From positions 55,567 to 119,566 of the forward strand of contig JAEWSJ010000009.1 of NCBI GenBank assembly GCA_023398335.1: DNA of 64,000 nucleotides, in the 5' to 3' direction. Every line of letters starts with the position of its first letter. Position 1 is the stretch's first letter. Under the pieces are notes generated by a model. That model did no database searches, was not told the origin of the DNA, and saw only the letters and a program-made list of their open reading frames with translations. The DNA is from Bacillota bacterium (GTDB taxonomy: Bacteria; Bacillota_I; Bacilli_A; RFN20; CAG-288). Both the position numbers and the translations under genes were made by a program. Below are positions 4,036 to 63,787 of the stretch, in pieces.

Positions 4036-4119
4036 CAAAAATCATTAAAAATGCAATATAATGACGATTAAACCATGAAAAAAGTTTATCAGTTTTACCC
4101 GATAAACTAAGAGGTTCTT

Positions 4120-4995
4120 TTATTCTTTTTCAAGAAGACCTAGCGCAAGAGAAGTAGCTCCCATTAAGCCAGCGTCTTGGTCAAATAACGCATATTTAAT
4201 TTGGATTTTTTTAACTGGATAAGGAGCGATAAATGCATTTGCTACTGACTCGATATCTTCATCAAATAAATCGCGTGATTTCATTACTCCACCAGATAAG
4301 ATGATGCAATCAGGATTGTAATTAAGTTGAACGTTTGCAATAAATGAAGATACAATTTGAATCCATGTATCATAGATAGCTAACGCTTTAATGTCTTTGT
4401 TTCTTACTAATTGGAAGAAATCAACGCCACCAGATACTTCTAATCCATTAATTTTAGATAAGAATACAAGTCCGTTACCAGAAGCGATTTGTTCAAATTC
4501 ATAATATCTATTGTTATATCCAATATAATTATGTCCACATTCAAATGGAAGATCTATTAATTCATGATTAACAACTAGACCACATCCTATTCCTGAAGAA
4601 ATTGTAATGAAGAAAGATGTTTTATCATCTTTTGCACAACCACGTAATGATTCCATGTAGCCTGAACAAGTTGCGTCATTTGCAATCTTAACCTTGTAGT
4701 TAGGGAAATCTGTTTCTATCAATTTTGCTAAATCAAAGTCGGATATTTTTAGATTTGGTAGAAAATCTATTTTGTTATAACTTGTTAAACCACAGGCGGA
4801 AACTCCAACATATTTTAAATTTGTTTTTCCTTTTGTGACTTCTTTTAACATTCGTTTAATTTGATCATAAAGTAAATCCGAATCATATTTAGTTGTCTTT
4901 TCTCTTAAAACTTTGATAATATTAAGATTTTCGTCAACTATTCCAACTCTTAAATTTGTAGCTCCTAAGTCTATTGCAATTACTTCTCGTGTCAT
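4120..4995 (-). CDS. ROK family sugar kinase (glucokinase-like)
   Basis: N-terminal DLGATNLRVG ATPase motif and ROK signature. Overlaps the pyk stop by 4 nt. Confidence 0.75.
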   Translation of the reverse strand: MTREVIAIDLGATNLRVGIVDENLNIIKVLREKTTKYDSDLLYDQIKRMLKEVTKGKTNLKYVGVSACGLTSYNKIDFLPNLKISDFDLAKLIETDFPNYKVKIANDATCSGYMESLRGCAKDDKTSFFITISSGIGCGLVVNHELIDLPFECGHNYIGYNNRYYEFEQIASGNGLVFLSKINGLEVSGGVDFFQLVRNKDIKALAIYDTWIQIVSSFIANVQLNYNPDCIILSGGVMKSRDLFDEDIESVANAFIAPYPVKKIQIKYALFDQDAGLMGATSLALGLLEKE

Positions 4996-6443: not shown

Positions 6444-6502
6444 TTTAAAAATCCTTTACTATAAAAATATTTTAACATAAACGTAATAATAAGATATATT
6501 CT

Positions 6503-7480
6503 TTATTCCAATATTCTTCCGATTTTAACGAATTCTTCAGAACTCTTTCTTGGAAATTTTAAGGCGTCTTGGATATTAAAATAAGATAATTTATTATTCA
6601 CAATACCAACGCATGAAGAAGAAATACCTCGCTTAAGCAATTCAACGGCATATTCTCCTAAACGTGAAGCAAGGATTCTGTCTGCAGCGGTAGGTGTTCC
6701 ACCTCTTTGCATATGGCCAAGAACTTCAGCTTTAGTTTCAAAGCCACACTTATTTTCAATTTCGCGTGCAAATTCATGAACATCACATACTTTTTCAGAA
6801 ATGATAATCATCGCGTGTTTCTTTCCATGATCTCTTTGTTCTTTTAATATATTAATAACTTCATCTTTTGTCATAGGTAAATCATTTGTAATTGTTAATT
6901 CAGCACCGCATGCTAAACCAGCATAAGCGGCCAAATCACCACATCTATTTCCCATTACTTCAATAATTGAGCAACGTTGATGAGAAGAGGAGGTATCTCT
7001 AAGTCTATCGACACATTCAACAATTGTATTAAGTGCAGTATCAAAGCCGATAGTAACATCGGTTGAGGCAATATCGTTATCGATTGTGCCTGGAACACCA
7101 ATGCAATTAATACCGAGTTTGGAGAGAGCTTGTGCTCCCATATATGTACCATCGCCACCGATGCACACTAAAGCATCAATTCCAATTTCTTTGAGAATAT
7201 CAGCGGCCTTTTTTTGAACTTCAGGATCTTTAAATTCTGGTAAACGTGCAGTACCCAAAATGGTACCACCTCTATTGATAATATCCGAAACTGAATGTCT
7301 ATTCATTTTGACTATGTTCTTTTCCAATATACCTTTATATCCATCGTAAATAGCATATGCTTCTAGTCCATATACTAAGCATGTTCTAACAATTGCTCTA
7401 ACACATGCATTCATTCCTGGTGCATCTCCACCACTAGTTAATATTCCAACTTTTTTAACCATAATAAAATCTCCTATCAA
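6503..7480 (-). CDS. pfkA: ATP-dependent 6-phosphofructokinase
   Basis: GGDGS-like motifs (TSGGDAPGMN, GGDGTY). Confidence 0.95.
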   Translation of the reverse strand: MIGDFIMVKKVGILTSGGDAPGMNACVRAIVRTCLVYGLEAYAIYDGYKGILEKNIVKMNRHSVSDIINRGGTILGTARLPEFKDPEVQKKAADILKEIGIDALVCIGGDGTYMGAQALSKLGINCIGVPGTIDNDIASTDVTIGFDTALNTIVECVDRLRDTSSSHQRCSIIEVMGNRCGDLAAYAGLACGAELTITNDLPMTKDEVINILKEQRDHGKKHAMIIISEKVCDVHEFAREIENKCGFETKAEVLGHMQRGGTPTAADRILASRLGEYAVELLKRGISSSCVGIVNNKLSYFNIQDALKFPRKSSEEFVKIGRILE

Positions 7481-7631
7481 TATAATTTTAACAACAAGAA
7501 AAGTATTTACAAGAAAAACAATCTTGGTAAGCGATTACATTAATTTTACTTTTAATGATTTATTAAATAATTATACAAAACATCATGATTTATTAGATTT
7601 TAAATATATATTTGTTTTCTATTGTTAATGA

Positions 7632-8309
7632 TTAATCTTTTTTTGATTTATGATTAAAGAAATAATTTTCCATTTCTTTTAATATTGAATTTTTGTTTGA
7701 CTTAAGTTTATTCTTTCTATCAAGCTTAAACTGTTCAAAAGAAATGATAATCTTGCTGTTCTTTGCAATTTTTGAAACTTTAGTCGCAAGAGAAGTAGAA
7801 TCGATGAAGTCGTATAACATCAAGCCATAAAAAACACCTAAAAAGAATTCGAGATAGACTTCATATTTAATAAAAAATGTTACCATAATTTCGTTATAGT
7901 GGTGAATGAAGAGATAATAGATAGCTCCACAGATTGCCCAAATTAAAGAAAACAAAGGACAAATTATCCCTTTGTAATTTCCTTTTCTATTGGAATAATC
8001 CCATAGCTTAATATTCATTCCTTTAATAAAAATCAATCCAGCAATTAACTCTATCAAAGTAACTCCTATACCAATTATACATATTACTAAAATGGATTTG
8101 ATATAGTAGTTATCAATTCCGTAATTCAATGAGGAAAACAAATATAAAACACATACTCCAAAACCGTATAACGGGATATATGGACCGTGTAAAAATCCTG
8201 GGTTAATCCATTTTTTGGCTGATACGAATCTTCTAAAAAGTACTTCAATTAGATAGCCAATTGATGAGCCAAAGAAGAATAGAAAGGCATATGTTAAGAA
8301 TGTGTCCAT
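7632..8309 (-). CDS. Polytopic integral membrane protein of unknown function
   Basis: 225 aa with about 5 TM helices and a Lys-rich C-terminal tail. Divergent from dnaB-like. Confidence 0.5.
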   Translation of the reverse strand: MDTFLTYAFLFFFGSSIGYLIEVLFRRFVSAKKWINPGFLHGPYIPLYGFGVCVLYLFSSLNYGIDNYYIKSILVICIIGIGVTLIELIAGLIFIKGMNIKLWDYSNRKGNYKGIICPLFSLIWAICGAIYYLFIHHYNEIMVTFFIKYEVYLEFFLGVFYGLMLYDFIDSTSLATKVSKIAKNSKIIISFEQFKLDRKNKLKSNKNSILKEMENYFFNHKSKKD

Positions 8310-8418
8310 AGTTTTAACTCCTATATATCTATTTAAAACCTAAATATGTTATTTTTCAATATTTCATTGCTATGAATATTTTGTTAATCTATAATTTATA
8401 GGTAGGGAGATTTAAAGA

Positions 8419-9678
8419 ATGCTAATGTTTGAAGAAGACAGTATTTATGAAGTAAGAGCGGATTTTGATTTATCTTGCTATGATAGAGAATTTTTAGCCA
8501 GATGTTACTTACCTTTTTTAGGTGGGAATGCTTTTGCTTTATATGAATATATGCTTTCATGTGATAAAGGGCAATACTACTTTGTTGATGATCTATGTAA
8601 GAGAATCGGAATACTTTCTTCTTCATTGATTTCTGAGCGACAAAAATTAGAAGCTTGTGGTTTGTTATCAACTTATCGTAATGAGACAAAAGATAAAATA
8701 TCTTATATTTTTATCTTGTTTGCTCCTTTATACCCAAATAAATTCTTCAATAATATTCTTTTATCTAGTTTACTTATTTCAAAAATAGGAAAAAGAGAAT
8801 TTGATAAATTAATTAATAAGTATACATCTAATTCAAAAATGGATAGTGCATTTAAAAATGTAACTATGAGATTTAATGATGTTTATGATGTTGAACCGGA
8901 TATGAACTACTATGAGACAATGAATGGAGAATCACGTGTTTTATTTGACAAACATGAAAATGAAATAAAGAGTGATTTTTCTGAAAAGAAACTTGTAGAT
9001 GAATTATCTAATATTGATGTTGATGTTAATTCTATTTCCACATATTTACCTGATATTAAACAGGTTTCTGTACTTTATAATGTTAAAGAAAAAACTTGTG
9101 CTAATCTTATTAAGTCAAGTTTAAACACAAATAATGTTTTTAATTTTGAGGCGTTTAAAGAAAACGCGTCTTTAGCTACAAAATATGGAGTTAAAGATAT
9201 TGACAATTCATTCGTTGATATTGATGAAACTTTCAATATTGGAAATTCTATGCTTGCTAAAAAAATTAAATTGTTGGAAAGTATATCTCCGAAAGAATTA
9301 TTATCTCATTCTTTAAACGACGTAGTATTACCAAAATCATATCTAGATTTAATATATAATCTTCAGAATGACTATAAGATTAATAATGGTGTATTAAATG
9401 TTGCCATTGATTACACTTTACAAAAATGCAATTTTCAATTACCTGAGATGTATATACGTAAAGTCATAATTTCGTTAGTTAAAAACAACATTAATACTTC
9501 ATCTGATGCAATGACTTATTTGGTACAGCAATCAAATAAGGTGATTAATAAGAAGAAGAGAAGCAAGTTGAATAAAGTTGAAGCAATAGTAGAGAATAAA
9601 AACGAAGTAAAGAATGATAATAATGACGATGATTTTGATTTAGAATCAGTTTTAGGAGGAGTATTTAGTGGAAAATAA
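8419..9678 (+). CDS. dnaB: Replication initiation and membrane attachment protein, B. subtilis DnaB-type (DnaD-like domains)
   Basis: N-terminus aligns to Bsu DnaB: YLPFLGGNAFALYEYML versus YQPLIGPVAHSLYMTL; ERQKLEACGLLSTY...YIFILFAPLYPNKFF versus ERLKLEGIGLLRTY...LFIYELLPPLRPDEFF. Followed by dnaI as in Bsu. Confidence 0.7.
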   Translation: MLMFEEDSIYEVRADFDLSCYDREFLARCYLPFLGGNAFALYEYMLSCDKGQYYFVDDLCKRIGILSSSLISERQKLEACGLLSTYRNETKDKISYIFILFAPLYPNKFFNNILLSSLLISKIGKREFDKLINKYTSNSKMDSAFKNVTMRFNDVYDVEPDMNYYETMNGESRVLFDKHENEIKSDFSEKKLVDELSNIDVDVNSISTYLPDIKQVSVLYNVKEKTCANLIKSSLNTNNVFNFEAFKENASLATKYGVKDIDNSFVDIDETFNIGNSMLAKKIKLLESISPKELLSHSLNDVVLPKSYLDLIYNLQNDYKINNGVLNVAIDYTLQKCNFQLPEMYIRKVIISLVKNNINTSSDAMTYLVQQSNKVINKKKRSKLNKVEAIVENKNEVKNDNNDDDFDLESVLGGVFSGK

Positions 9679-10600
9679 TATATTGAAAAATGTTCTTACT
9701 AAAGAAGAAGTAGAGAATAAAGATGTTGAAATTGAATCTAGAATTAAGAACAACGAACGTCTACAAGAAATTCTTCTGAAATTTGATGTTAGTGATGATA
9801 TAGTTAAAAAATCTTACGCACCTATATTGCGTTATTTAGACGATCAAAAGCAGTGTAATAATTGTCTTGGCTATGATAAATGTACAAAATGTAATAAAAA
9901 GGGATATCGAATCGCATTAAAATACGATCCTTTTATTGGCTATATTGATGATGCATATATAAAATGCGATTATTATAAACAAATTTGCAAATTATATGAC
10001 CGATTTATCATTTCTGATATTGACGTTGTAAAATGCAAAGATACTTTTTCTAAAACTTACGAGTATTTATTTAAGACTAAATCTTCAGTTAGGAATAGTT
10101 TTATTTCTGTAGCAAAAAGCGTGATGAAAAAATCTGTAACAAAATACTCTCCGAAAGAAATGAACTGCGGAGCGTATATTTATTCTGATAATGATAATGG
10201 TAATTTCCTTCTTTCATTAATTGCTTTTACACACGCTAAAGCTCAAAGAGATATTGTTTATTTAGAAGCAAGTAGAACCTTGACTGATGCATCTTCTTTT
10301 AATAAGGAAATTAAAGAAGAAGCGGATTCCAAAATAGAAAGAGCGAAAAACGCACCTGTTCTTGTTATTTCAAATCTTGGATTTGAATATAAATCATCTT
10401 CCGCTCGAGATATTATTTTGACACCTTTATTATCTTCAAGAGCAAAAAAAGGATTGGTTACTTATATTTCATCTCGTGTATGCTTAAATGATTTAATTTA
10501 TTCCTATGCTAAAGATGCTGTTAGTAAAAAATTCTTAGAATCATCCTTCAATAAAATTGTTGAAGAATATCACATTGAAGATATCGAATTATTTAATTAA
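9668..10600 (+). CDS. dnaI: DnaI-like helicase loader with degenerate Walker A/B (predicted ATPase-dead)
   Basis: GTG start with a GGAGG RBS. N-terminal Cys cluster (CNNCLGYDKC..C) resembles the DnaI zinc domain. The P-loop position reads YIYSDNDNGNFLL versus Bsu YLYGKFGVGKTFLL. There is no GKT/GKS anywhere in the protein. Walker B DD is replaced by SN. Confidence 0.6.
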   Translation: MENNILKNVLTKEEVENKDVEIESRIKNNERLQEILLKFDVSDDIVKKSYAPILRYLDDQKQCNNCLGYDKCTKCNKKGYRIALKYDPFIGYIDDAYIKCDYYKQICKLYDRFIISDIDVVKCKDTFSKTYEYLFKTKSSVRNSFISVAKSVMKKSVTKYSPKEMNCGAYIYSDNDNGNFLLSLIAFTHAKAQRDIVYLEASRTLTDASSFNKEIKEEADSKIERAKNAPVLVISNLGFEYKSSSARDIILTPLLSSRAKKGLVTYISSRVCLNDLIYSYAKDAVSKKFLESSFNKIVEEYHIEDIELFN

Positions 10601-10659
10601 TTATTATTTCATATAAAAATTTTCCTTATATTTACTAAATGATGTGAGGAGATTTTTTT

Positions 10660-11823
10660 ATGTTAAAACAAAAAGAACAAAGCAATTGTGGCGAGGTAGC
10701 AGTAAGAAATATAATTCATTATTTTTATAAGACAAGAGATTCCTATTTTTATAGTCTCAAAAATGATTGCAGCAATTTTTATTTGATGAAGGATTCTTTA
10801 TATGAATATGGAATTATATCAAATGGATATTCATTTACATCTTTAAAATCTCTTTGTAAAGTAAAAACTCCGTTTATTTGTTTAATAAACAGAGATGGAG
10901 AGAAACACTTTATTATTGTGAGAAAGAAAGTTTCGAATTATTTCTTAGTAAACGATTTGAACTATGGTTGGCGATTAATTAGTCTTCATAAATTTAAAGA
11001 AATATCCGAGAACAAAATACTAGTATTTGAAAATTATGAGAAAAAAAAGATTAAGAAAATAAGTCTCATTAGTAATAAATATTTACTCGCGTTAAACTTT
11101 GTTATTTTAATGGAATCGCTTTGTTTATTTTATTCTTTTGCTATTATGAACGATTCAAAATATAGTTTAATTAATTCATTAAGTTTAATAGCTGTTTTTT
11201 TATTAGCGTTTATGCATAAATCACTGTTAATTAGCGTTTCAAAACAATTTGATAAAAGTGTATCCCTAAAGTATTTTCAAGCAGTAAATAGTACAAAAGA
11301 TTATGTATTACTAAATAATTTCAAAACAAAATTTATCACTGAAATAAACGGGAAAATAAGTTCAGTATACACTTTAATATTAGCTTTGTTGGTAGCCTTT
11401 TTTTCCAGTATAGAAATGCTAGCTTTTTTACTTGTATCGTTTATTATATTTATCATATATGAATATTTATTTAGTAAATATTTGAATAAGATGGAATATA
11501 AAATTTATGAAAAAGAACAGATGTTTTTAAACAGCAATCAAATAGATGAAAATTCCTTTAATTCTTCATCGCAAATTGCTTCGAAATATGGGTTGTTAAT
11601 TGAATTAAAGAAAATACTCGTATTAATTTCTATCTTTGTATGTAGCATTTTCTATTCATATCAATCATTGAATATTTCTTATTGTATATTTTTAACTTTG
11701 TTCATTAATTATGTTGTTTCAACTTGCTATTCAAATTTTGCTTATTTCAGTGTTAATAGCAGCTATTTTAACGAAATTCTTAAGTTGGATGGTATAATTT
11801 ATGATATTATTCAAAAAGGGTGA
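10660..11823 (+). CDS. Peptidase C39-like domain fused to a 6-TM domain (ABC-exporter-like, but no NBD)
   Basis: N-terminus has Q-x5-C (QKEQSNCGEVAV), HFIIV and a downstream D/N, all typical of C39. About 6 TM helices follow. The protein ends at 387 aa with no ATPase domain, and no ABC NBD gene is adjacent. Confidence 0.5.
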   Translation: MLKQKEQSNCGEVAVRNIIHYFYKTRDSYFYSLKNDCSNFYLMKDSLYEYGIISNGYSFTSLKSLCKVKTPFICLINRDGEKHFIIVRKKVSNYFLVNDLNYGWRLISLHKFKEISENKILVFENYEKKKIKKISLISNKYLLALNFVILMESLCLFYSFAIMNDSKYSLINSLSLIAVFLLAFMHKSLLISVSKQFDKSVSLKYFQAVNSTKDYVLLNNFKTKFITEINGKISSVYTLILALLVAFFSSIEMLAFLLVSFIIFIIYEYLFSKYLNKMEYKIYEKEQMFLNSNQIDENSFNSSSQIASKYGLLIELKKILVLISIFVCSIFYSYQSLNISYCIFLTLFINYVVSTCYSNFAYFSVNSSYFNEILKLDGIIYDIIQKG

Positions 11824-39835: not shown

Positions 39836-40543
39836 ATGAAAAATATTTTATTAATTGCAGCGATGCCAGAAGAATTAGATGCTTTAAAAGATAAGTTAAG
39901 TAAATTTAAAGAAAAAAGTTATGGCGTAATAAAAGGTATCGAATTTAAAACTAAAAAGGGAAATGTTTTTGCTTTTGTTGGTAAAGTTGGTAAAGCTAAT
40001 ACGGCGTTTAACATCGGATATTTAGCTGCGCAAATGGATATTAAACGTATCATTAATTTTGGAGTGGCAGGCTCATTATCAAAAAATATCGTACCTCTTG
40101 ACGTTGTAGTAGCCGAAAAGGTTTGTTATTTTGATTGTGATTTAACATCAGACCCAAAATACAAATTAGGTCAAATGGCAGGTGAGGAATTGTATTATTT
40201 AGCTGATCCAACAATCAACAGAATATTAAATAAAATTAATACAACTTTAAATATTAAGACAGGAACAATAATCTCTTCTGATTCATTCGCTACTAAAGCT
40301 AATATGACAGAAGATTTATTGAAGCATTTTGATAATCCATTATGTGTTGATATGGAGTCAGGTGCTGTAGGACAAATATCACATCGTTTAAATATTCCAT
40401 TTACAATTATTCGCGCGATATCAGATATGGTCCTTGCTGAATCTAATACAGATATGTTTAATGAATTCTTGGAAATGTCTTCTCGTCGAGCTGCATCAAC
40501 AGTCTTACATATTCTAAATAATGAATACGTTGATGAACAATAA
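39836..40543 (+). CDS. mtnN: 5'-methylthioadenosine/S-adenosylhomocysteine nucleosidase
   Basis: MKNILLIAAMPEEL... PNP/UDP phosphorylase fold. Confidence 0.8.
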   Translation: MKNILLIAAMPEELDALKDKLSKFKEKSYGVIKGIEFKTKKGNVFAFVGKVGKANTAFNIGYLAAQMDIKRIINFGVAGSLSKNIVPLDVVVAEKVCYFDCDLTSDPKYKLGQMAGEELYYLADPTINRILNKINTTLNIKTGTIISSDSFATKANMTEDLLKHFDNPLCVDMESGAVGQISHRLNIPFTIIRAISDMVLAESNTDMFNEFLEMSSRRAASTVLHILNNEYVDEQ

Positions 40544-40557
40544 TATATAAAGTCTAT

Positions 40558-40588
40558 AACCTGATAAATAATATTTGTCAGGTTTTTT
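40558..40588 (+). terminator. Rho-independent terminator after mtnN
   Basis: aacctgataaa...tttgtcagg long stem followed by T6. Confidence 0.75.
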
Positions 40589-40776
40589 AATTGGCTAAAA
40601 CGACATAAGACGTATAAGTAATAAGATAAATGTCTCTTGTGGACGAATAGAAGCACAATGATATTAAAGGAAAAAATATATTCTCATACACGTATCATCT
40701 ATTTATATAATTATTAATAAATTACTAAATTGATAGGGAAAGCCCATAATAGGGCATATTACTACATATTATAATA

Positions 40777-40804
40777 ACTTCGTATAATCTCTATTATGTA
40801 AACT
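40777..40804. other. dif: Chromosome dimer resolution site dif (XerC/XerD target)
   Basis: ACTTCGTATAA-TCTCTA-TTATGTAAACT, compared with the B. subtilis/Firmicutes dif ACTTCCTAGAA-TATATA-TTATGTAAACT. The right arm is an 11/11 match and the left arm is 9/11. It lies in a 450 bp non-coding gap at the strand-bias switch. Confidence 0.8.
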
Positions 40805-40992
40805 AACAAATAAAAAAGTGCCTATTTAAGGAATTTTTATAATTTATTACATAAATTATTAACCGTGATTTCACAGAAAAAAGATAGTTATCCACCGCTT
40901 TATATTACTATATATTTACTAATTATCTACTAATATAAAACTAAATTATTAATTTTGAATTTTTTGTTACTAATATCTCACTACAGTCTTAT

Positions 40993-41829
40993 CTATTTCG
41001 TATTAGTCTGATTCTTCTTAATTAAATTAAAAGTAATCGATTTGCTAGTAGTGATTCCATACTTCAATTCTAATTCTCTTTTAATGAAATGAATTACTAT
41101 TTCTATTATTATCATGAATAGCACTGAAATAAACGTATAACCAAATAAATCAGTCATTTCTAAATTTAAGAACGAAATATTGATCAACGTACCAATTCCC
41201 TTTAGATTCGTATTAGAAATAAATACTTCACTCATAAGCTCTACTTTCAATCCTAGAGCGGATGCTTGTGAAAGACCGATGAAGAGATAAGGAAGAGATA
41301 AAGGACACAAGACCTTTGTAAAATTATTAATTGAATGTCTGCCTTCAATTGTAATTATATCGCGATAGTCTTTTAATATAATTTTACTTCCCTCAAGAGT
41401 AGATTTATATATAAGTGGAAAAGTAATTAAGAAGACAATTACATATGTTGTGACTTTAGTATAGATAAGAAGGACTAGAATTAACGATACTGTAGGTATA
41501 GATGTCAAAAAATAGATCATCGGTTTTAAGATTACTTCGATTTGAGAAAAGAAACCAGCGAGTAATCCAAGAAAGTATCCTATAAAGGTCGATATAAATA
41601 AAACGATAATCACTCGCATAATCGAATAGCCAAGATTTATCCATGTATCATTATCAGCCATCAAAATAAACATTTTATATATAGTTAAGAATAACTCTGG
41701 AACAACTTTATAAGAAGTAAGATATGCAATTAGTTCGTATATTCCACATAACAAAATAATACCTATAAGCATATAGATAGAATTTAGAAATTTTTTGTTC
41801 TTAAAAATGTTAATGTTCAATTCCTTCAT
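40993..41829 (-). CDS. ABC-importer type permease (6 TM)
   Basis: 278 aa with 6 TM helices and an EAA-like loop (LSQASALGLKVELMSEVF). Sits downstream of two lipoprotein genes. Confidence 0.5.
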   Translation of the reverse strand: MKELNINIFKNKKFLNSIYMLIGIILLCGIYELIAYLTSYKVVPELFLTIYKMFILMADNDTWINLGYSIMRVIIVLFISTFIGYFLGLLAGFFSQIEVILKPMIYFLTSIPTVSLILVLLIYTKVTTYVIVFLITFPLIYKSTLEGSKIILKDYRDIITIEGRHSINNFTKVLCPLSLPYLFIGLSQASALGLKVELMSEVFISNTNLKGIGTLINISFLNLEMTDLFGYTFISVLFMIIIEIVIHFIKRELELKYGITTSKSITFNLIKKNQTNTK

Positions 41830-41924
41830 ACTTATTTATTATACTTTATCTACACCGTTTATAGTTAAAAAAACACAAGTAATCAAAGATAATTTCCTGC
41901 GCCTTATTAAAAATAATAATAGTT

Positions 41925-42977
41925 TTATTTATACAATTTAGAGAATGTAGTATCTTTTAGAGCTGAGAATCCAGTTAATGCTGCTTCAGCAAAGAATTCA
42001 TTGATTGAAAATTGCTTAGAATTAAATGCAAGTCCATTAACGTCTAATACAGTAGTTAAGGTCTCTTTATCTACTCCATAGGTTGTACTGGCTTTATAGG
42101 TATTATTTTCTTCTGCTTTATTTATTAAGCTTAAGATACCCTGCCCTTTATTATTTTCTAAATCATTTAAACTTTCATCAAAATTAGCTAAGAAATTATC
42201 TCGACTTGATATTAAATCCTTTTCTGTAGCATTTTCGAGACGATTGGAAATAAATAATCCAGCTTGTGGAAATCCATCAAAGCCATTCCCAGAATTCATA
42301 TTGTTTGTTTTCGAATATTTTTGCCACTCTTTTGTTATATTATATTTAATTGATAATGAATTATTAGCCGCTAACGCCTTGGTAACGTATGGTTCGGAAA
42401 GAATAACATAATTTACTGTTTTCCCTTCTAATACCTTAGTTTCAGCAACGCTTTCAGCTAAAGCAACACCAGCTAAAGACGAATCTATTTTCACATTGTA
42501 CATTTTTTCAAATAGCGAATTAAATATAGATGGGGACCCAAATGAAACAATATTATCTTCTTCATCCAACGTTGAATTTGTGTCATTTCCTAAGTCAATG
42601 AGATAAGCATTACCTTTTGTAACAACCCGAGCTAATTTATATGAGGAGTTTTTCTTTTCGATAAATGTTTGCCCTTTTGTTATATCAAATATAATGGCAT
42701 CATATTCTGTGCCTGAAACAAAAGCCGCTGGAATAATCGTTGCAGGATTCGAAGCAATTGTGCAATTATCGTGATCTTCAACAAAAGGAGCTAATGCAAC
42801 AGAAGGGGCACCAATCGGTGACAAAACCTTAAAATCTAGTTTCTTAGTACTTAATGCACTATTACAACTAGTAAGTAAAAGTGGCACCATTAATAAAGTA
42901 ATATATTTTTTTTGCATAATTATTTCTCCTATGTTTATTATATAGCTATAACATTTATTTTCTAATGATATGCTCAT
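41925..42977 (-). CDS. Lipoprotein, putative solute-binding protein (paralog A)
   Basis: Signal peptide plus lipobox LLLTSC. Paralogous to the next gene (shared GLFISNRLENA, KLARVT/V.GNAY). Confidence 0.5.
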   Translation of the reverse strand: MSISLENKCYSYIINIGEIIMQKKYITLLMVPLLLTSCNSALSTKKLDFKVLSPIGAPSVALAPFVEDHDNCTIASNPATIIPAAFVSGTEYDAIIFDITKGQTFIEKKNSSYKLARVVTKGNAYLIDLGNDTNSTLDEEDNIVSFGSPSIFNSLFEKMYNVKIDSSLAGVALAESVAETKVLEGKTVNYVILSEPYVTKALAANNSLSIKYNITKEWQKYSKTNNMNSGNGFDGFPQAGLFISNRLENATEKDLISSRDNFLANFDESLNDLENNKGQGILSLINKAEENNTYKASTTYGVDKETLTTVLDVNGLAFNSKQFSINEFFAEAALTGFSALKDTTFSKLYK

Positions 42978-44009
42978 CTATTTATAGAATGAAGAATAAA
43001 CAGATGGAGCGATTGAATCAACAAAAACATTTAATCTACGTAAATTATTTACTCTTGCAAAACTATCAAGATCAAGCGTATAAGAGCAAAATCCTAAAGC
43101 ATTCACGCCGTTCGGATTTTTATTTCCGTTTAAACAATCACAAATATCGCCATATTCCGCTCCGAAATAATCAATTAAGTCAATTTTCTTATCATCATAA
43201 TAATTCTTAATAATTGATGAAGTAGCATTACCGTTGCTTTGTGATAAATCTGATAGATTCTTATCAATCGAGATTAAAAAATTCTCTCTAGCGTCCTTTA
43301 AAGGGCCTTCTTTAGCATTTTCTAATCTATTAGAAATAAATAAACCGATTGAAGGAACACGAGCATAATCAGTTTCAACGCTACAAAATGTTGAGACAAG
43401 ATTTTGAAATAGATGATAATTTCCATTTTTATCATTTAATAAACGCGAAACATATGGTTCATTTAATATGGCATAATCACCTTCTCCGGAAATGAAATGA
43501 TTATAAGTATCTTTAACATCATCATAAAAAGTGTCTATCGCATTATTATTTATAGCATTATTCTTTATAAATAAAGAGTTTTGAATACCCATAGATGTAT
43601 ATGTATGAGTGTCATAGCGACTATAAGCATAATCATATGAAATGACATTATCAAATGATGAGATAGCTTCTCCATCTGCTACCTCACCTCTCTTTATGAC
43701 ATAAGCATTTCCACATCCTGTGACACGAGCTAGTTTAAATGGGACATTTTTATTTTGTATTAACTCAATTCCTTTAGCTAAATCATATAATATGAAATCA
43801 TATTCTGAAGTGAAAAAAGCATCGTATACTAGAGAAGAAGTAACAAAAGCACAATTATCCGTATCATCTGCATATGAAAGAAAAGGATAGGAATCCCCTC
43901 CTTTAAATGTAATTATTTTAAAAGTCAAACCTTTTTGTATCCAAGAACATGAGGATATAAGTAATGAACTAGATAAAACTAAGGTTAATAATGCTTTTGT
44001 TTTTTTCAT
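42978..44009 (-). CDS. Lipoprotein, putative solute-binding protein (paralog B)
   Basis: Lipobox LLISSCSW. Tandem duplicate of 41925-42977. Confidence 0.5.
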   Translation of the reverse strand: MKKTKALLTLVLSSSLLISSCSWIQKGLTFKIITFKGGDSYPFLSYADDTDNCAFVTSSLVYDAFFTSEYDFILYDLAKGIELIQNKNVPFKLARVTGCGNAYVIKRGEVADGEAISSFDNVISYDYAYSRYDTHTYTSMGIQNSLFIKNNAINNNAIDTFYDDVKDTYNHFISGEGDYAILNEPYVSRLLNDKNGNYHLFQNLVSTFCSVETDYARVPSIGLFISNRLENAKEGPLKDARENFLISIDKNLSDLSQSNGNATSSIIKNYYDDKKIDLIDYFGAEYGDICDCLNGNKNPNGVNALGFCSYTLDLDSFARVNNLRRLNVFVDSIAPSVYSSFYK

Positions 44010-44011
44010 AA

Positions 44012-45202
44012 TTATTTTAATAATTCGTATATTGGAGTACCAATTTCATTTTTGGATTTCTCTACTCCAAAGTTAGCTAAGACAGTTGCTCCAATATCGG
44101 CAAATGTTGCACGTTCTTCGATTTTTACACCGGTATTAAATGATTTAGAATAAGCTAAGAATGGGACTCTTTCACGTGTATGATCAGTTCCACAATGTGT
44201 TGGATCATTACCATGATCGGCTGTGATGATAACTAAGTCATCTTCTCTCATATTATCCATTAATGTTTTTAATTCACCGTCGAATGTTTCAATGGCTTTA
44301 CCATATCCAATTGGATTTCTTCTATGACCATATTCCGAATCAAATTCAACTAGATTAACAAAACATAAGCCGGTAAAATCATCATTTTTAACATAGTCAA
44401 TAGTTTTGGTCATTCCATCTGAATTAGAAACTGTATGTACTGTTTTAGTTACACCACAATTATTAAATATATCTGCTATTTTTCCGACACAAGAAACTTC
44501 AAAGCCATTATCTTTTAAGTCATCCATTGCTGTTCTACCAGTTGGTGATAAGGCGTAATCATGACGATTAGGAGTACGTTTATAGTTTGTCTTATCTGTT
44601 CCTAAATATGGACGAGCAATAATTCGACCTAAGCGATATTCAGGTCTATTACAAATCTCTCTTGCTATTTCACAATCACGATAAAGTTCATTAAGAGGAA
44701 CAATCTCTTCATGCGCAGCAATTTGGAGAACTGAATCCGCTGATGTATAAACAATTAATGAACCATCTTTACATTGTTGCTCACCTAAATCTACTAAAAT
44801 TTGAGTACCAGAAGCGGCACAATTTCCAATGATTTTACGTCCAAATTTCTCTTCTAATTCATCGATTAATTCCTTAGGAAAGCCTGTATCTGTAAAAGTC
44901 TTAAATGGTTTTGTTGTTAATATTCCCATCATTTCCCAGTGACCAGTCATAGTGTCTTTACCGTTAGACTCTTCTCTAAGTGTGGTTACAAATGAATGAG
45001 GATGAAGAACTTTTGTAGTTCCCTTAATATCGGCTAAATCATGTAATCCTAAACTATTTAATGTAGGAATATTTAATCCTCCACATTTTTCAGCAATATG
45101 AACATATGTGTTTGTCCCAACATCACCAAATTTTTTTGCGTCATCTAATGCTCCGATTCCTAATGAATCACATACGATAACAAATATTCTTCTAAATTTC
45201 AT
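44012..45202 (-). CDS. deoB: Phosphopentomutase
   Basis: N-terminus IVCDSLGIG and metalloenzyme-superfamily motifs. Confidence 0.9.
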   Translation of the reverse strand: MKFRRIFVIVCDSLGIGALDDAKKFGDVGTNTYVHIAEKCGGLNIPTLNSLGLHDLADIKGTTKVLHPHSFVTTLREESNGKDTMTGHWEMMGILTTKPFKTFTDTGFPKELIDELEEKFGRKIIGNCAASGTQILVDLGEQQCKDGSLIVYTSADSVLQIAAHEEIVPLNELYRDCEIAREICNRPEYRLGRIIARPYLGTDKTNYKRTPNRHDYALSPTGRTAMDDLKDNGFEVSCVGKIADIFNNCGVTKTVHTVSNSDGMTKTIDYVKNDDFTGLCFVNLVEFDSEYGHRRNPIGYGKAIETFDGELKTLMDNMREDDLVIITADHGNDPTHCGTDHTRERVPFLAYSKSFNTGVKIEERATFADIGATVLANFGVEKSKNEIGTPIYELLK

Positions 45203-45276
45203 ATAAATGCCCTTTCTTTAAAGCAAAATTATTATAAAACAATAGTAGATTTTTATCAAAGAAAACGATATATAAA

Positions 45277-46179
45277 TTACTTCTTGTTCATGAACTCGTC
45301 ATAAGCCGATAAAATTCTTTTGGTAGACACGTGAGTATATATTTGGGTAGTTTCAATTTTAGAATGCCCTAGCATTTCTTGAACATGTTTTAAATTTGCT
45401 CCATTTTCTAACAAATGGGTGGCGAATGAATGCCGCAAAGTATGAGGTGAAATATCTATTTCAATTCCAGCTCTATGAGCGTAGATTTTAATTCGTTTCC
45501 AAAAAAATTGTCTTGAAAGTGGTTGACCACTATTATTTAAGAAAACGTATTTTGAGCGATAATATGGACTTATATTTCTCACTTTTGAAAAATAAAGAGA
45601 CAAATATTGAAGAGCAAATTCTCCAATAGGAATAATTCTTTCTTTATTTCCTTTACCTTTGGTTTTTATATAACCTTGTTGGAAATTGATATTGCCTAAT
45701 TCGAGTGACAATAACTCCGACACTCTTAAACCTGAAGCATACATTGTTTCCAACATAGCTTTATCTCTTATCTCACTTTTATTTGATAAATCAAAAACAT
45801 TTAATAAATCATCTACTTCTTCAAGTGATAATACTGAAGGAAGATGACTTTCGTGTTTTGGTAAATACAATCCAATTAATGGAACGTTAATTAAATTTTC
45901 TTTATTCAAATATATATATAAATAACGTATTGTTCCTGCTCTTCTAATGATGGTTGAAGTATTTTTTCCTGAATTAGATAAATAATTAATAAAAGATGAA
46001 ATATCATCTCTTTTTAATTCTGTTAGTTCTTTATCTTTAATAAAGGCGATAAATTGCTCGATATCAATAGAATATGTAGTAATCGTTGAACTAGAGTCAC
46101 CTTTTTCAACAGTTAGATAAGTTAAAAACTCATCTTTTATATCACTAATTTTCATTTTTCTTATCCTTCTTAATATCAC
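45277..46179 (-). CDS. xerD: Tyrosine recombinase XerD-like (RipX-type). The true start is probably the MKISDIK Met about 8 codons in.
   Basis: Catalytic R...K...HxxR...H...Y all present (GLRVSEL, KGKGNKER, HTLRHSFAT, LGHS, QIYTHV). Adjacent to deoB as ripX is to drm in Bsu. Confidence 0.85.
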   Translation of the reverse strand: MILRRIRKMKISDIKDEFLTYLTVEKGDSSSTITTYSIDIEQFIAFIKDKELTELKRDDISSFINYLSNSGKNTSTIIRRAGTIRYLYIYLNKENLINVPLIGLYLPKHESHLPSVLSLEEVDDLLNVFDLSNKSEIRDKAMLETMYASGLRVSELLSLELGNINFQQGYIKTKGKGNKERIIPIGEFALQYLSLYFSKVRNISPYYRSKYVFLNNSGQPLSRQFFWKRIKIYAHRAGIEIDISPHTLRHSFATHLLENGANLKHVQEMLGHSKIETTQIYTHVSTKRILSAYDEFMNKK

Positions 46180-47332
46180 CTAATGTTTTGAACAATCCAG
46201 CGTTTTTACCACTATTAAGTGTGTTTAATAACACTTTATTTTTACTTTTATTAGTTTTAGGTGTTGAATTTGTTGCTTTAAATAAAGACAATTGTTCTAT
46301 ATTATCATCATTCTCAACTAAATTTTCTAAGGCTACACCAAGAAGACGAACTGGTTCACCTTCATAAAATTTTTCAAATATAGAAATAACTGTTTCACTA
46401 ATAACTTCTAAAGAACATGTATGGAAAGATAAAGATTGACGTTTCGATTTTGTTATAAATTCGTCAGTTCGATATGTTACGCATATTGTTTTGGTTATTT
46501 TATGTGATCTAACCATATTATTTTGGACTTCTTGGCACAAATATATAAGTTCATCCTTCAGTAAATCATAATCCGTTTCGTTCTCTGACAACGTGCGGGA
46601 GACAGAAATACTCTTTGGATCAAACATAGAAGTAACTACCACATCATTTCCCTTACCATTTGCCCATGCAACAAACATGTCATACGCAGAACCTAATGCA
46701 CTTTTAACTTTCGGATTGCTATTATTCGCCAAATCACCAATTGTTAATACATTAAGTTCAATTAACTTTGGATATGTTTTTTTACCTATTCCCCACATAT
46801 CTTTAATTGGAAGTGGCCATATTAGTTTTTTATAATCATCTTTAATTATGATTGTTAGTCCTAATGGCTTAACTAAATCAGAAGCCATTTTAGCTAAAAA
46901 CTTTGTGTGTGCATATCCTATTGAACATTTTAATGTTAATTCTTTATATATATCAATTTGTAAATCTCGTAGATAATCATACGCATTATCATCTGAAACA
47001 AAATTAGTAACATCGATGTAACATTCATCAATCGAAGCAACCTCAATTTCACCAAATCTTCTTCTTAAAAAAGACATAAATTTGTGTGACATTTTTGAAT
47101 ATAATCTGTAATTGCCATCAACTAATATTAAGTCTTTACATAAAGATTTTGCCTCATAGATTGATTGAGCAGAATGAACGCCAAATTTTCTAGCAACATA
47201 ATTAGCTGTCGAGATAACTCCACGCTTCATAGAGCCACCTACAGCGACAGGTTTGCCTTTTAAAGACGGGTTAATATTTTCTTCACATTGAACAAAAAAG
47301 GCATTTAAATCTATATGTACTATATTCTTCAT
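46145..47332 (-). CDS. dinB: DNA polymerase IV (Y-family)
   Basis: N-terminus HIDLNAFFVQCE and GSMKRGVISTANY. Confidence 0.85.
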   Translation of the reverse strand: MKNIVHIDLNAFFVQCEENINPSLKGKPVAVGGSMKRGVISTANYVARKFGVHSAQSIYEAKSLCKDLILVDGNYRLYSKMSHKFMSFLRRRFGEIEVASIDECYIDVTNFVSDDNAYDYLRDLQIDIYKELTLKCSIGYAHTKFLAKMASDLVKPLGLTIIIKDDYKKLIWPLPIKDMWGIGKKTYPKLIELNVLTIGDLANNSNPKVKSALGSAYDMFVAWANGKGNDVVVTSMFDPKSISVSRTLSENETDYDLLKDELIYLCQEVQNNMVRSHKITKTICVTYRTDEFITKSKRQSLSFHTCSLEVISETVISIFEKFYEGEPVRLLGVALENLVENDDNIEQLSLFKATNSTPKTNKSKNKVLLNTLNSGKNAGLFKTLGDIKKDKKNEN

Positions 47333-59774: not shown

Positions 59775-61877
59775 TTAACGTGTCTTTACAATAATAATTT
59801 CGTATGGAATTGTAAATGGATTACCGAATTCATCTTCCTGTAGGTAATCAACATTCCAGTCTTTGGATAACTCAATCCATTTTTGATCATCTCTAATGTT
59901 AGTAACATCAAAGACACCGTCGAGGTAATAATCTAAAACTTCAATATCAATTTTCTTTACGCCTGAGTTAGAAAATACACATCCCTTAACTGAACGAATA
60001 GATTTAGGTAAAACAAATTTTTCATTTAAACTTGTGCATCCTTCGAAACAGAATGAGCCAATATTATTTACACCTAGGTATGATACCTTTGTAGTATCTT
60101 TAGTATCAATAATAGTATCGAATATTACTGATTCTAATCCGGTACATCCTTGGAATGCACGAGAACCGATAGATTTGATATTAATTGTGAAATCAACATC
60201 TTTAATTCCCTTACAACCATAAAACGCTTGAATTCCGATTTCAGTAATTGATAAAGAAAAAGTTACTTCAACTAAACTAGTCATGTTGTAAAACATCTTG
60301 CTAGTTACGACAGTCGGACCATTCTTAAAATTATAAGATTTTATTTCTGGAACATTATCCCCAAATATATCAGTTAAATCATCACCATAAGGCAAAGCTA
60401 ATTTAACCGCATTTGAACATAATTTAAAGGCATTTTTAGATATTTCAGTATTATCACCTAATTCAATCTCAGTAATATGTGAGCATCCACTAAAAGCGTT
60501 TTCACCAATAAAGACTGAAGTAGGAAGGTTAACGTAAGAAATGTTACATCCAGCAAAGGCTTCAGAACCAACATACTTAACAGTATTCGGTATACTTATG
60601 GTATAACTATAACCACTAAAGCATTTATCTCCAACCCCATATACAGAATATGGAATTTGATAATCAGCAGGTATTTTACCTTTAAACCCAGCTAGGAATT
60701 TACCTAGAATTACTTTGCCATCTGCTAAGGAAGAATACCATGGGCAAGTTAAACTTGATAAGCTTAATTTAGAGATATATTGAAGAGAGGAATAATTCTT
60801 TAACTCATTTAATTTTGTTAAATCTGCTAAATTATCACTGCCAATGTATTCAACTTCATTAATATCTAAAGAAGTAACATTAATAGCAGCGCTAATAGCT
60901 GAATCAATTACAACTTTATCTTTGTTTCCAAATACTTTAAGTTTTGTTAATTTATCTAAACCATCAGTATCACTAAATAATTCGAATAACAATTTATTAC
61001 CGTCGTAGGCAAAAGTCTCAACATTTTTGGTTTCTTTAAATACATCTACTCCATATTCAATGTTAGTGCCATTAAATACACAAGATTTAAGAGCAGAACA
61101 ATTTGCGAAAGCTCTATTGCCTATTCTATTAAGGGTAGAAGGAATATCTACATTTGTAATTGATGTATTTTCAAATGCGGAAGCACCAATTCCTTCTAAT
61201 GTTGAAGGAAAAGTAATCGATTTTAGATTAGTATCTTTAAACGCATTTGCAGCAATATACTTAATATTGGAAGGAACAACATATGAAGATACATCACCAA
61301 TATAATCATATAACGTATCTCCGAAAATTATTGCACCAGTTTTATTAGTAATGTAGGAAGAATAAAATGGTGTTGAATCAAATGCTCCATCTCCAACGTA
61401 TTTAAGATTTGTTAAACTATCAAGATTAATTTCATTTAATGAAGTGTCTCCACTAAAAGCATAGGCTCCAATAGAATTGATATATTTTCCTAAATTTACT
61501 GAAGTTATATCTTTATTATTTTTCATGAATTCATCGCCTAAAGCGACAATCTTATAGCCACCATCAGTCTCAGCAACATCAGTTCGAATAGCATCTTCAA
61601 TTGTAACTTTGTTATTTTCAACAAATCCTTTAATATCACCTAAAGAAGAAGTGTAAATAAACGAATCTAAGTTAATCGTATCATCATAAGACTTTGGATC
61701 TTCATCACCTAGACTGGCTAGTTTTTCATCTTTTCCCGCATTTTGTGAGAATTTAAATCTACTTAAAAACTTAGTTTTTTGCAACGGATTAACAAAAACT
61801 GACTCTTCTTCACATGAAGTTATCGATAATATTGATGCGGCGAGAAGAAGCAATCCGATATACTTGTATTTTTTCAT
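59775..61877 (-). CDS. Surface lipoprotein with BspA-type leucine-rich repeats
   Basis: Start at MKKYKYIGLLLLAASILSITSC with a lipobox, preceded by a GGAGGAGG RBS. Multiple repeats of the form ...IGxxAFxxCxxLxxVxxP... Confidence 0.65.
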   Translation of the reverse strand: MKKYKYIGLLLLAASILSITSCEEESVFVNPLQKTKFLSRFKFSQNAGKDEKLASLGDEDPKSYDDTINLDSFIYTSSLGDIKGFVENNKVTIEDAIRTDVAETDGGYKIVALGDEFMKNNKDITSVNLGKYINSIGAYAFSGDTSLNEINLDSLTNLKYVGDGAFDSTPFYSSYITNKTGAIIFGDTLYDYIGDVSSYVVPSNIKYIAANAFKDTNLKSITFPSTLEGIGASAFENTSITNVDIPSTLNRIGNRAFANCSALKSCVFNGTNIEYGVDVFKETKNVETFAYDGNKLLFELFSDTDGLDKLTKLKVFGNKDKVVIDSAISAAINVTSLDINEVEYIGSDNLADLTKLNELKNYSSLQYISKLSLSSLTCPWYSSLADGKVILGKFLAGFKGKIPADYQIPYSVYGVGDKCFSGYSYTISIPNTVKYVGSEAFAGCNISYVNLPTSVFIGENAFSGCSHITEIELGDNTEISKNAFKLCSNAVKLALPYGDDLTDIFGDNVPEIKSYNFKNGPTVVTSKMFYNMTSLVEVTFSLSITEIGIQAFYGCKGIKDVDFTINIKSIGSRAFQGCTGLESVIFDTIIDTKDTTKVSYLGVNNIGSFCFEGCTSLNEKFVLPKSIRSVKGCVFSNSGVKKIDIEVLDYYLDGVFDVTNIRDDQKWIELSKDWNVDYLQEDEFGNPFTIPYEIIIVKTR

Positions 61878-61894
61878 CTTAATCCTCCTCCTCA

Positions 61895-63787
61895 TTAAAT
61901 AATCTTTACATCAGTATTTAATGTATATACTTCAAGTGGTTTCTCTTCATTAAACGAAAGGTATATTTTACTGTCATCTTTAACATCTAAATTTGAAATG
62001 TCAATATCGCAAGTTTTAGAGTTAATCAAGCACTTTAAATATTTTTTATCTCCATAATTTAATATTTCAACTTTTTCGTAGTCGATATTATTAGCACTTT
62101 GCTCAAGAGAAGCTTTTGGTGTAAAGCGAATACGATATTCGCATTGTAAAACTCTTCTACCTTCGACATTTGAAAAACGACGGATAAATTCATCATTTAG
62201 TCTATATTTTGCGTTAGCAACAACTCCACAGAATCTGATTACACGTTTGCCATTTTCATCTTTTTCTCTGGCTTTTTCAAAATGACCAACAGATTCAACA
62301 ATATGGGATACTGGCTTAATATTTGAATCATCATCGATGATGATGTCTTCATAAGAGACATCAAAATTGAAACTATTCCCAACCTTTACTTCCTTATTGC
62401 TAGTAGCGAATAAATATTCGTTATTTATTTCATCAAACAAAGTAACTAAATACTTATTTTCTTCCATAAATTCACAGTTAAATACTGGTAAAGAGAATGT
62501 TTTTCCTTCGTGAATAGAAATATTTGGGATTTTTACAATTCTCTTTTTATTTGGAAGTGTTTTAAAAGCATCGAATATATTAACTTCTTTGTTAAATAAA
62601 GTAATGGTCTTTTCATCTTTTTGCATTGAAATAACCGAATATGTTGGATAATATGGCATGATTGATTGCTCATTATCATTGTCGAATAATTGTAAGAATT
62701 CATTTTTAAATAACGCGTGTAATTTATCGCCAATTTCATACTTTACATTAGCACCAACTTTAATAATAATAGGAGATTTTGAAATAGACTCATCAGTTAA
62801 AACATTATTTCCTAAATCACAATATAAGAGAGTTTCATTACCTAATTTTTCAATAGATGAAACAACAACATCTAATGTAGCTTTAGTTTTCTTCTCCGAA
62901 ATAACAATGTGATCTGGTCTAATACCTAATGTAATAGTTTTATCCCCACCAAAATAATTGACATCACATTTGACAAAATATTTATTCTCAACACTCATGG
63001 TTTGACTATCTTCAAAAGCAATATTAATTAAATCTTTTTGTCTTTTTAAATTTACATTGAAGAAATTCATTTGTGGAGTACCAATAAATCCTGCAACAAA
63101 CTTATTTATCGGGTGATTATATAAATTAATAGGAGTATCTATTTGTTGAACATAACCTAGTTTCATAACAACAATACGTGTGCCCATGGTCATAGCTTCA
63201 ACCTGATCGTGAGTAACATAAATAAATGTTGTTGCTAACTTCTTATGAAGTCTAGAAATTTCCGCTCTCATTTGAGCTCTTAATTTTGCATCTAGATTAG
63301 ATAAAGGTTCATCAAGTAAAAATACTTTAGGATTACGGACGATAGCACGTCCTAAAGAAACTCTTTGTCTTTGACCACCGGACATTTCCTTTGGCTTTTT
63401 TTGTAAATAATCTTCAATTCCAAGTATTCTTGCAGCTTCAAGAACTCGTTTATTGATTTCGTCTTTTGGCATATGTTGATTTTTCAATGAAAAAGCCATG
63501 TTTTCATAAACACTCATATGAGGATATAATGCGTAGTTTTGGAAAACCATTGCAATATCCCTTTCTTTTGGTTGAACATCATTGACAAGATTATCACCTA
63601 TGTATAAATCACCAGTAGTTATTTCTTCAAGGCCAGCAATCATACGTAAAGTGGTTGATTTACCACAACCAGATGGGCCAACAAAAACAATGAATTCTTT
63701 ATCTTTAATATTGATATTAAAATCATTGACCGCCTTTGTTCCATTTGGATAAACCTTGAATACGTGATTTAATACTACATTAGCCAT
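61895..63787 (-). CDS. Sugar-ABC-type ATPase (MalK/MsmK-like) with an extra C-terminal extension of about 260 aa
   Basis: Walker A GPSGCGKST, signature LSGGQRQRV, Walker B LLDEPLSNLD. The MalK-like regulatory domain extends to about residue 370. Residues 370-630 have no recognisable motif. Confidence 0.8.
   Translation of the reverse strand: MANVVLNHVFKVYPNGTKAVNDFNINIKDKEFIVFVGPSGCGKSTTLRMIAGLEEITTGDLYIGDNLVNDVQPKERDIAMVFQNYALYPHMSVYENMAFSLKNQHMPKDEINKRVLEAARILGIEDYLQKKPKEMSGGQRQRVSLGRAIVRNPKVFLLDEPLSNLDAKLRAQMRAEISRLHKKLATTFIYVTHDQVEAMTMGTRIVVMKLGYVQQIDTPINLYNHPINKFVAGFIGTPQMNFFNVNLKRQKDLINIAFEDSQTMSVENKYFVKCDVNYFGGDKTITLGIRPDHIVISEKKTKATLDVVVSSIEKLGNETLLYCDLGNNVLTDESISKSPIIIKVGANVKYEIGDKLHALFKNEFLQLFDNDNEQSIMPYYPTYSVISMQKDEKTITLFNKEVNIFDAFKTLPNKKRIVKIPNISIHEGKTFSLPVFNCEFMEENKYLVTLFDEINNEYLFATSNKEVKVGNSFNFDVSYEDIIIDDDSNIKPVSHIVESVGHFEKAREKDENGKRVIRFCGVVANAKYRLNDEFIRRFSNVEGRRVLQCEYRIRFTPKASLEQSANNIDYEKVEILNYGDKKYLKCLINSKTCDIDISNLDVKDDSKIYLSFNEEKPLEVYTLNTDVKII

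Follow-up and report, generated by a model that had tools for sequence, protein, structure and literature searches.

In the 64,000-nucleotide stretch of Bacillota DNA analysed here (the window), the phosphopentomutase gene deoB is followed by genes for two paralogous lipoproteins (A, then B) and a 278-residue permease. This cluster is probably the deoB-led core of a NitT/TauT-type ATP-binding cassette (ABC) importer, located at the replication terminus, with its ATPase encoded elsewhere. Lipoproteins A and B, held outside the cell by a lipid anchor, would capture the substrate there and dock on the permease, which presumably forms a homodimer. The ATP-hydrolysing subunit would come from a gene elsewhere, most plausibly one for a short SsuB/TauB-like ATPase such as that found in one related locus (L060, described below). 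The role of the lipoproteins as receptors that deliver a small ligand to the permease is predicted from the adjacency and overlap of the genes.

Lipoproteins and permease of the cluster

Both lipoproteins begin, as read from the sequence, with a signal peptide and a lipobox (LLISSC in A, LLLTSC in B), and the lipobox cysteine (C18) is the sole invariant column across 62 family members. The two proteins are 29% identical over 311 columns (BLASTP, E=2e-29), an alignment that includes the blocks GLFISNRLENA and KLARVxxxGNAY. Lipoboxes and paralogy are thus as described in a first-pass annotation of the window, which had also given each protein about 345 residues. That length suits A (343 amino acids) but not B. 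The full open reading frame (ORF) of B, 41925-42977, comprises 350 amino acids, and translation from the ATG at 42917 gives 330 (MQKKYITLLMVPLLLTSC). This ATG is preceded 9 nt upstream by AGGAG, aligns with the N-termini of all homologs, and is almost certainly the true start; the length of 330 residues and a gap of 60 nt between the two lipoprotein genes follow from it.

Scans of both lipoproteins against Pfam and NCBIfam gave no match even at E<=1, and the same is true of most relatives; the Pfam NMT1 model is matched by members at the edge of the family only. A profile of the family, searched against solved structures, matched 3hn0 (BDI_1369 of Parabacteroides distasonis) at E=1.4e-5. AlphaFold2 models were obtained with mean confidence (pLDDT) of 90.3 for lipoprotein B and 84.6 for lipoprotein A, and the best structural neighbours of both are all binding proteins of the NMT1/NrtA/SsuA/TauA/ThiY/PqqT type. 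Going by these models, the lipoproteins are two-lobed class II solute-binding proteins (SBPs) with the NMT1/SsuA/NrtA/ThiY-type fold. The first-pass annotation had likened them to the SBPs of a type I ABC importer and had named NMT1/SsuA/ThiY, Bmp and p37-like proteins as families to be compared. The fold and the adjoining NitT/TauT permease agree with the general proposal, and the structural neighbours, together with the 3hn0 match, single out the first of the three families. Bmp and p37-like identities were rejected on fold, and no Bmp/PnrA structure is present among the top structural matches.

The enzymes MqnA, MqnD and THI5 are also found among the structural neighbours, and some distant family members match Pfam VitK2_biosynth. 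Such matches favour a different reading, in which the lipoproteins are extracellular enzymes or sensors that have kept an SBP fold (like MqnA/MqnD or THI5), with no relation to the neighbouring permease gene. This reading is hardly credible: the lipoprotein signal, with its invariant cysteine, directs the proteins to the outside of the cell, the permease gene is strictly adjacent and frequently overlapping in every locus where the contig continues, and the top structural matches are transport receptors.

The family to which the lipoproteins belong is large. Word-indexed searches with single proteins gave only 12 lipoprotein and 6 permease relatives, whereas an exhaustive profile search recovered 1,397 cluster representatives (at 50% identity) with E<=1e-3, 113 of them with E<=1e-30. 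Almost none has a Pfam domain, and among the few that are named in their source all but one are called "hypothetical protein". The lipoproteins belong to an SBP subfamily that is not covered by the Pfam or NCBIfam libraries. Matches in genomes all come from uncultured gut Bacillota, comprising Bacilli metagenome-assembled genomes (MAGs), Candidatus Scatoplasma, Candidatus Enterosoma, Clostridium sp. CAG:288, Anaeroplasma and Erysipelotrichaceae.

Within this family, copies of the A type occur solely as the first of two SBP genes (8 loci, including the window), and the B type is found in all single-copy loci. Proteins of the A type are altered at several positions conserved in the family; for example, GAP is changed to GGD, and D78 is missing in some. 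Lipoprotein A is plausibly a derived duplicate with shifted specificity. As a separate observation, among the top 150 representatives about 11 resemble circular permutants (P0037, P0042, P0043, P0045, P0051, P0060, P0065, P0066, P0104, P0105 and P0160), in which the signal peptide is followed by the C-terminal half of the profile (~159-340) and then by the N-terminal half (~40-159). Another representative, P0038 (611 amino acids), consists of two binding proteins in tandem.

The permease passes the gathering score of Pfam BPD_transp_1 (36.6 bits vs 26.4, residues 84-251) and has approximately 6 hydrophobic segments by hydropathy. A profile built from 25 permeases of the family aligns, over profile positions 8-250, with the solved structures of CmpB (9u9z, E=3.3e-20) and NrtB (8w9m, E=3.1e-17). 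The earlier assignment of the 278-residue protein as an ABC permease is borne out by the Pfam score and by this end-to-end alignment, and from its sequence the protein is a genuine NitT/TauT-type membrane subunit of a type I importer (Transporter Classification 3.A.1.16/17). The cytoplasmic loop that lies at the position of the coupling helix in CmpB and NrtB aligns without gaps and is of equal length. Its glycine is kept in at least 80% of members and P176 in at least 90%, and L177 is invariant; conservation across the loop is 0.48, compared with 0.46 for the protein on average and 0.24-0.44 for the other loops. Retention of this loop would fit continued docking of an ATPase, to which it lends some weak weight.

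The SBP-permease module and its presumed unlinked ATPase

The surroundings of the module were compared in the window and in 60 related loci (approximately 600 kb, with GC content of 21-61% and at least 7 genomic contexts), annotated with purpose-built profiles. The SBP gene is directly followed by the permease gene wherever the contig continues, often with an overlap of 1-26 nt, and this adjacency and overlap indicate a stoichiometric partnership of the two products. The most frequent arrangement, seen in about 36 loci, is xerD-deoB-SBP-permease, with pfs on the far side. In others the pair lies next to a SpoU gene and is followed by a MatE gene, or lies beside a Crp/Fnr gene, or comes after a gene for an [FeFe]-hydrogenase, an Fe-ADH or a peptidase M1. 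In one further context the order is MalFG-amylase-MalK-lipoprotein-lipoprotein-SBP-permease.

Some of these neighbourhoods recur. The arrangement of a divergent SpoU-methylase gene beside SBP, permease and a MatE-like gene is conserved in L005, L006, L040, L041 and L044-L046 (GC 21-33%; two are from Anaeroplasma MAGs). An [FeFe]-hydrogenase gene (Fe_hyd_lg_C) is positioned directly upstream of, and co-directional with, the module in several divergent loci: L024 (6381-7856), L034 (4193-7893, where it is accompanied by a NuoF-like partner) and L059 (2283-4094), and also in L037, L054 and L056. In three contexts (L043 1854-2555, L047 392-985 and L050 4339-4935) the gene just upstream of the module encodes a Crp/Fnr-family (cNMP_binding) protein, which may regulate the module in those lineages. 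L050 also carries an IS605 OrfB/TnpB-like gene, with a Cas12f-like TNB domain, at 10185-11005, near the terminus region of that genome.

The first-pass annotation had reported no nucleotide-binding (ATPase) gene in the cluster, and a Walker A search of the window ORFs agrees: no ABC ATPase gene is present there. Nor was an importer ATPase found beside the module within the flanks of the 59 related loci of the core family. A regular-expression search and a jackhmmer probe concur in placing transporter ATPases in only four related loci (L036, L047, L059 and L060); a second jackhmmer ATPase probe drifted to RecN, an SMC-type protein, and its matches were discounted. In one of the four, the divergent member L059, the module is followed (5873-10039) by genes for S-adenosylmethionine decarboxylase, spermidine synthase, a PotA-like ATPase and a permease, which gives that single locus a polyamine theme.

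L060 lies at the edge of the family: its SBP scores 120 bits against the family profile and matches Pfam NMT1 at 3.8e-15. The order here is SBP-permease-ATPase, and the ATPase, of 243 amino acids, begins 4 nt after the permease stop codon and has no detected MalK OB or TOBE domain. The retention of this order indicates that the lineage arose from a canonical ABC importer and that, in the core family, the ATPase gene has since become unlinked. Because the window cluster has no linked ATPase, supply of this subunit in trans would be the most economical reading, as judged by analogy with other importers.

Several observations weigh against an importer core of this kind. The permease misses all equivalog cut-offs widely, its best NCBIfam matches being SaoP (62.4 bits, cut-off 295), SsuC (40.6, cut-off 347), NtrB (37.5, cut-off 209) and TauC (29.9, cut-off 342), and by these scores it is orthologous to none of the named systems. 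The canonical EAA motif can be made out only loosely, with an acidic residue 5-7 positions before the conserved glycine in many but not all members. No candidate short ATPase was found in the 64-kb window or in the approximately 600 kb of related loci, and ABC importers do not usually lose linkage in such a large number of lineages. There is also no regulatory clue to the substrate: in an Rfam search at gathering scores, no family reached its score anywhere in the window, and 10 loci from differing contexts gave no riboswitch beside the module.

A rival reading is that the SBP and permease act with no ATPase at all, either as a binding-protein-dependent facilitator or as a secondary transporter derived from an ABC importer. 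Widely differing genomes have kept the two-gene module, translationally coupled, in approximately 60 loci where no importer ATPase is close by, and uncultured gut Bacilli and Mollicutes-like lineages seem to account for many of the hosts. Opposed to this, the coupling loop is of full length and under constraint, the edge member L060 retains an ATPase, and ATPase-less operons of a similar kind (P5PAB and probably RibXY, discussed below) use an ATPase in trans. Type I ABC membrane subunits are not known to work alone, and ATPase-free transport is highly improbable here.

A second possibility, which the first-pass annotation had raised by way of example, is that the importer core is energised by the MalK-like gene at 61.9 kb. 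This gene (61895-63787) encodes a UgpC/MalK-type ATPase that would have to serve as a multitask ATPase across ABC families. Among window ORFs of at least 80 amino acids it is the only transporter ATPase with a strict GxxGxGK[ST] Walker A motif (the other such ORF is RecN), and the window edge lies 213 nt upstream of its start, which leaves its earlier label of orphan gene provisional. Multitask MalK/MsmX-type ATPases are known from Firmicutes, where those of one species can stand in for those of another (PMC7658222), and in L036 an 849-residue ortholog (53% identity over the first 423 amino acids) is co-directional with the SBP-permease pair, 1.4 kb upstream of it. The L036 gene, however, comes directly after two MalFG-like permease genes and an alpha-amylase-family gene, which makes it part of a sugar system; ATPase sharing has been reported solely for sugar importers (PMC7658222); and the linked ATPase of L060 is a protein of 243 residues in which no MalK OB or TOBE domain was detected. 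The MalK-like gene is an unlikely partner, and one without precedent; of the earlier proposal, supply in trans is kept. As to the protein itself, its C-terminal extension is approximately 250 residues long, compared with a Lys- and Glu-rich extension of approximately 480 residues in the L036 ortholog (3882-6431). Directly downstream in the window, at 59775-61895 on the minus strand, lies a gene for a 706-residue BspA-type leucine-rich-repeat protein (Pfam LRR_5 1.4e-71).

There is a slim chance that the SBP-permease pair constitutes a widespread ATPase-free facilitator or ion-coupled carrier, or, in a milder version, is energised across families by a MalK/UgpC-type multitask ATPase. Either mechanism, if true, would be without precedent among type I ABC membrane subunits.

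Position at the terminus and the question of substrate

The window has approximately 30% GC and reads cleanly with translation table 11. The four ORFs of the cluster are co-directional on the minus strand, as first annotated, and are the last of six such genes across 40993-47332, in the order dinB-like, xerD-type, deoB, lipoprotein A, lipoprotein B and permease (Table 1). The deoB product is a full-length equivalog (NF003766, 547.7 bits vs a cut-off of 256; TIGR01696, 531.8 vs 341.2). Gaps of 2 nt (deoB to lipoprotein A), 60 nt (lipoprotein A to B) and 95 nt (lipoprotein B to permease) separate the genes, no terminator-like site is present on the minus strand inside the cluster, and a promoter-like site upstream of deoB is the best consensus match within 40400-46400. 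The number of promoter-like sites overall is not above that in shuffled sequences, and the site is to be taken as a consensus match only; it is likely the operon promoter. The gaps of 2 to 95 bp in the first-pass annotation agree with the sequence, and the co-transcription that was deduced from them is plausible.

Table 1. Features of the importer cluster and its surroundings in the window
Feature	Position	Strand	Evidence and remarks
PNP_UDP_1-family nucleosidase (MTA/SAH nucleosidase-like)	39836..40543	+	Pfam PNP_UDP_1 8e-35; NF004079 1.2e-47, 162 bits vs cut-off 169; convergent across dif, not co-transcribed
dif-like XerCD recombination site	40777..40804	+	Context: replication terminus; sole match in window; 2 arm mismatches to B. 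subtilis dif arms
Permease, 278 aa, NitT/TauT-family type I ABC importer membrane subunit	40993..41829	-	Pfam BPD_transp_1 5e-9
Lipoprotein B, 330 aa, ancestral-type SBP	41925..42917	-	Lipobox LLLTSC; start taken as ATG at 42917
Lipoprotein A, 343 aa, putatively derived SBP paralog	42978..44009	-	Lipobox LLISSC
deoB, phosphopentomutase, 396 aa	44012..45202	-	First gene of cluster; NF003766 1.3e-164; TIGR01696 8.2e-160; Pfam Metalloenzyme 3e-50
Promoter-like TTGATA-17-TATAAT	45231..45259	-	Upstream of deoB; 11/12 consensus match
xerD-type tyrosine recombinase	45277..46179	-	Context; TIGR02225 XerD 8e-98, 327.3 bits, just below 329.6 cut-off; NF001399 297.7 bits vs 279 cut-off, passed
dinB-like gene	46145-47332	-
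UgpC/MalK-type (CUT1) ABC ATPase, 630 aa, ~250-aa C-terminal extension	61895..63787	-	ABC_tran 1e-31; OB_MalK; TOBE_2; NCBIfam UgpC subfamily 6.6e-142, cut-off passed

Placement of the cluster between dif and xerD, at the terminus, had also been noted, and three features agree on it. The dif-like 28-mer (ACTTCGTATAATCTCTATTATGTAAACT), scored against the B. subtilis dif arm consensus, is a sequence for which shuffles give an expectation of 0 chance matches; it lies within a 450-nt gap between the convergent pfs-like and permease genes, and xerD is 4.5 kb away. Cumulative GC skew reaches its maximum at 38-40 kb, and gene orientation reverses at this switch.

The position next to deoB led to the suggestion in the first-pass annotation that nucleosides or pentoses are taken up, and an importer of nucleosides, nucleobases or pentoses feeding the deoB salvage pathway is a possible, though doubtful, form that the system might take. 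In B. subtilis, deoB (drm) is in an operon with the gene for purine nucleoside phosphorylase. The deoB gene is directly upstream of the module, 2 nt away in the window, and is also upstream in approximately 36 related loci; L002 and L007 have a gene of the Xan_ur_permease (xanthine/uracil) family between their SBP and permease genes, and in L012, whose contig stops short of a permease, such a gene comes straight after the second SBP gene; and a PNP_UDP_1 nucleosidase is encoded across dif. On the other hand, the entire terminus neighbourhood is syntenic (recN-dinB-xerD ... pfs-rsfS-nadD-yqeH), and because all of it is conserved the deoB linkage may simply be inherited. L050 and L051 have the module at the same xerD-proximal position without deoB and with a Crp-type regulator instead, and other members are beside [FeFe]-hydrogenase, Fe-ADH, SpoU/MatE or Crp-type regulator genes. 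The fold differs from that of the known nucleoside-binding Bmp/PnrA proteins, and no riboswitch, of the purine class or any other, is found at the cluster. The suggestion is weakened by the absence of deoB from L050 and L051 and gains most from the Xan_ur_permease genes of L002, L007 and L012. An unrelated purine riboswitch (RF00167, 47.4 bits) was seen in L024 at 617-716 on the minus strand, approximately 7 kb from the module and on the other strand.

The binding proteins themselves offer a further hint. Polar positions conserved in the SBPs are D78, T100 and N103, joined in the closer relatives by E175 and Q218, none of them basic; this pattern would be easier to reconcile with an organic ligand that is uncharged or cationic than with an anion.

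Comparison with other importers

Uncultured gut Bacilli and Mollicutes-like lineages probably rely heavily on imported nutrients, and the substrate of this importer may bear on the growth needs of these bacteria. A profile for the lipoprotein family would improve the annotation of transporters in their genomes. With its consistent lack of a linked ATPase, the module is also well suited to testing how far ATPase sharing reaches beyond sugar importers. The finding is real, though no more than moderately unusual; the layout, an importer core with an unlinked ATPase, is already known from a few other importers.

One close parallel is RibXY, the riboflavin importer of Chloroflexi and Actinobacteria, in which a COG0600 permease and a COG0715 SBP are encoded in a two-gene operon that is accompanied by an ATP-binding gene in only a few Chloroflexi species (PMC4418817). 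The ribXY pair is by itself enough to complement an E. coli ribB mutant, a riboflavin auxotroph (PMC4418817), which suggests that an ATPase of the host can serve. Like RibXY, the window module combines an SBP of the NMT1/SsuA type with one permease of the NitT/TauT family, and no ATPase gene is linked to it. It differs in having no flavin mononucleotide (FMN) riboswitch, the feature that defines RibXY, and in its SBPs, which are two paralogs, are lipoproteins of low-GC gut Bacilli and go unrecognised by the Pfam NMT1 models.

P5PAB, the pyridoxal-phosphate importer of Actinobacillus, is likewise an SBP and permease operon without its own ATPase, and it has been found experimentally to need the AfuC ATPase of another system (PMC8427247). 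Unlike the window module, it belongs to the AfuABC-like (iron/hexose-phosphate) ABC family, has an SBP of a different fold class and resides in a Gram-negative host. Sharing of one unlinked ATPase by several incomplete importers is known for the CUT1 sugar importers of Firmicutes, through the multitask ATPases MsmX and MsmK (PMC7658222); these systems are documented for sugar importers only, whereas the window permease is of the NitT/TauT type.

Among relatives by fold, the cyanobacterial nitrate and bicarbonate importers NrtABCD and CmpABCD, as well as SsuABC and TauABC, encode their own ATPases, which the window module does not, and their binding proteins are 8-16% identical to the window SBPs in structural alignments. 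BDI_1369 (3hn0), an uncharacterised binding protein for which neither ligand nor function is given in the match tables, shares 16-17% identity with the window SBPs.

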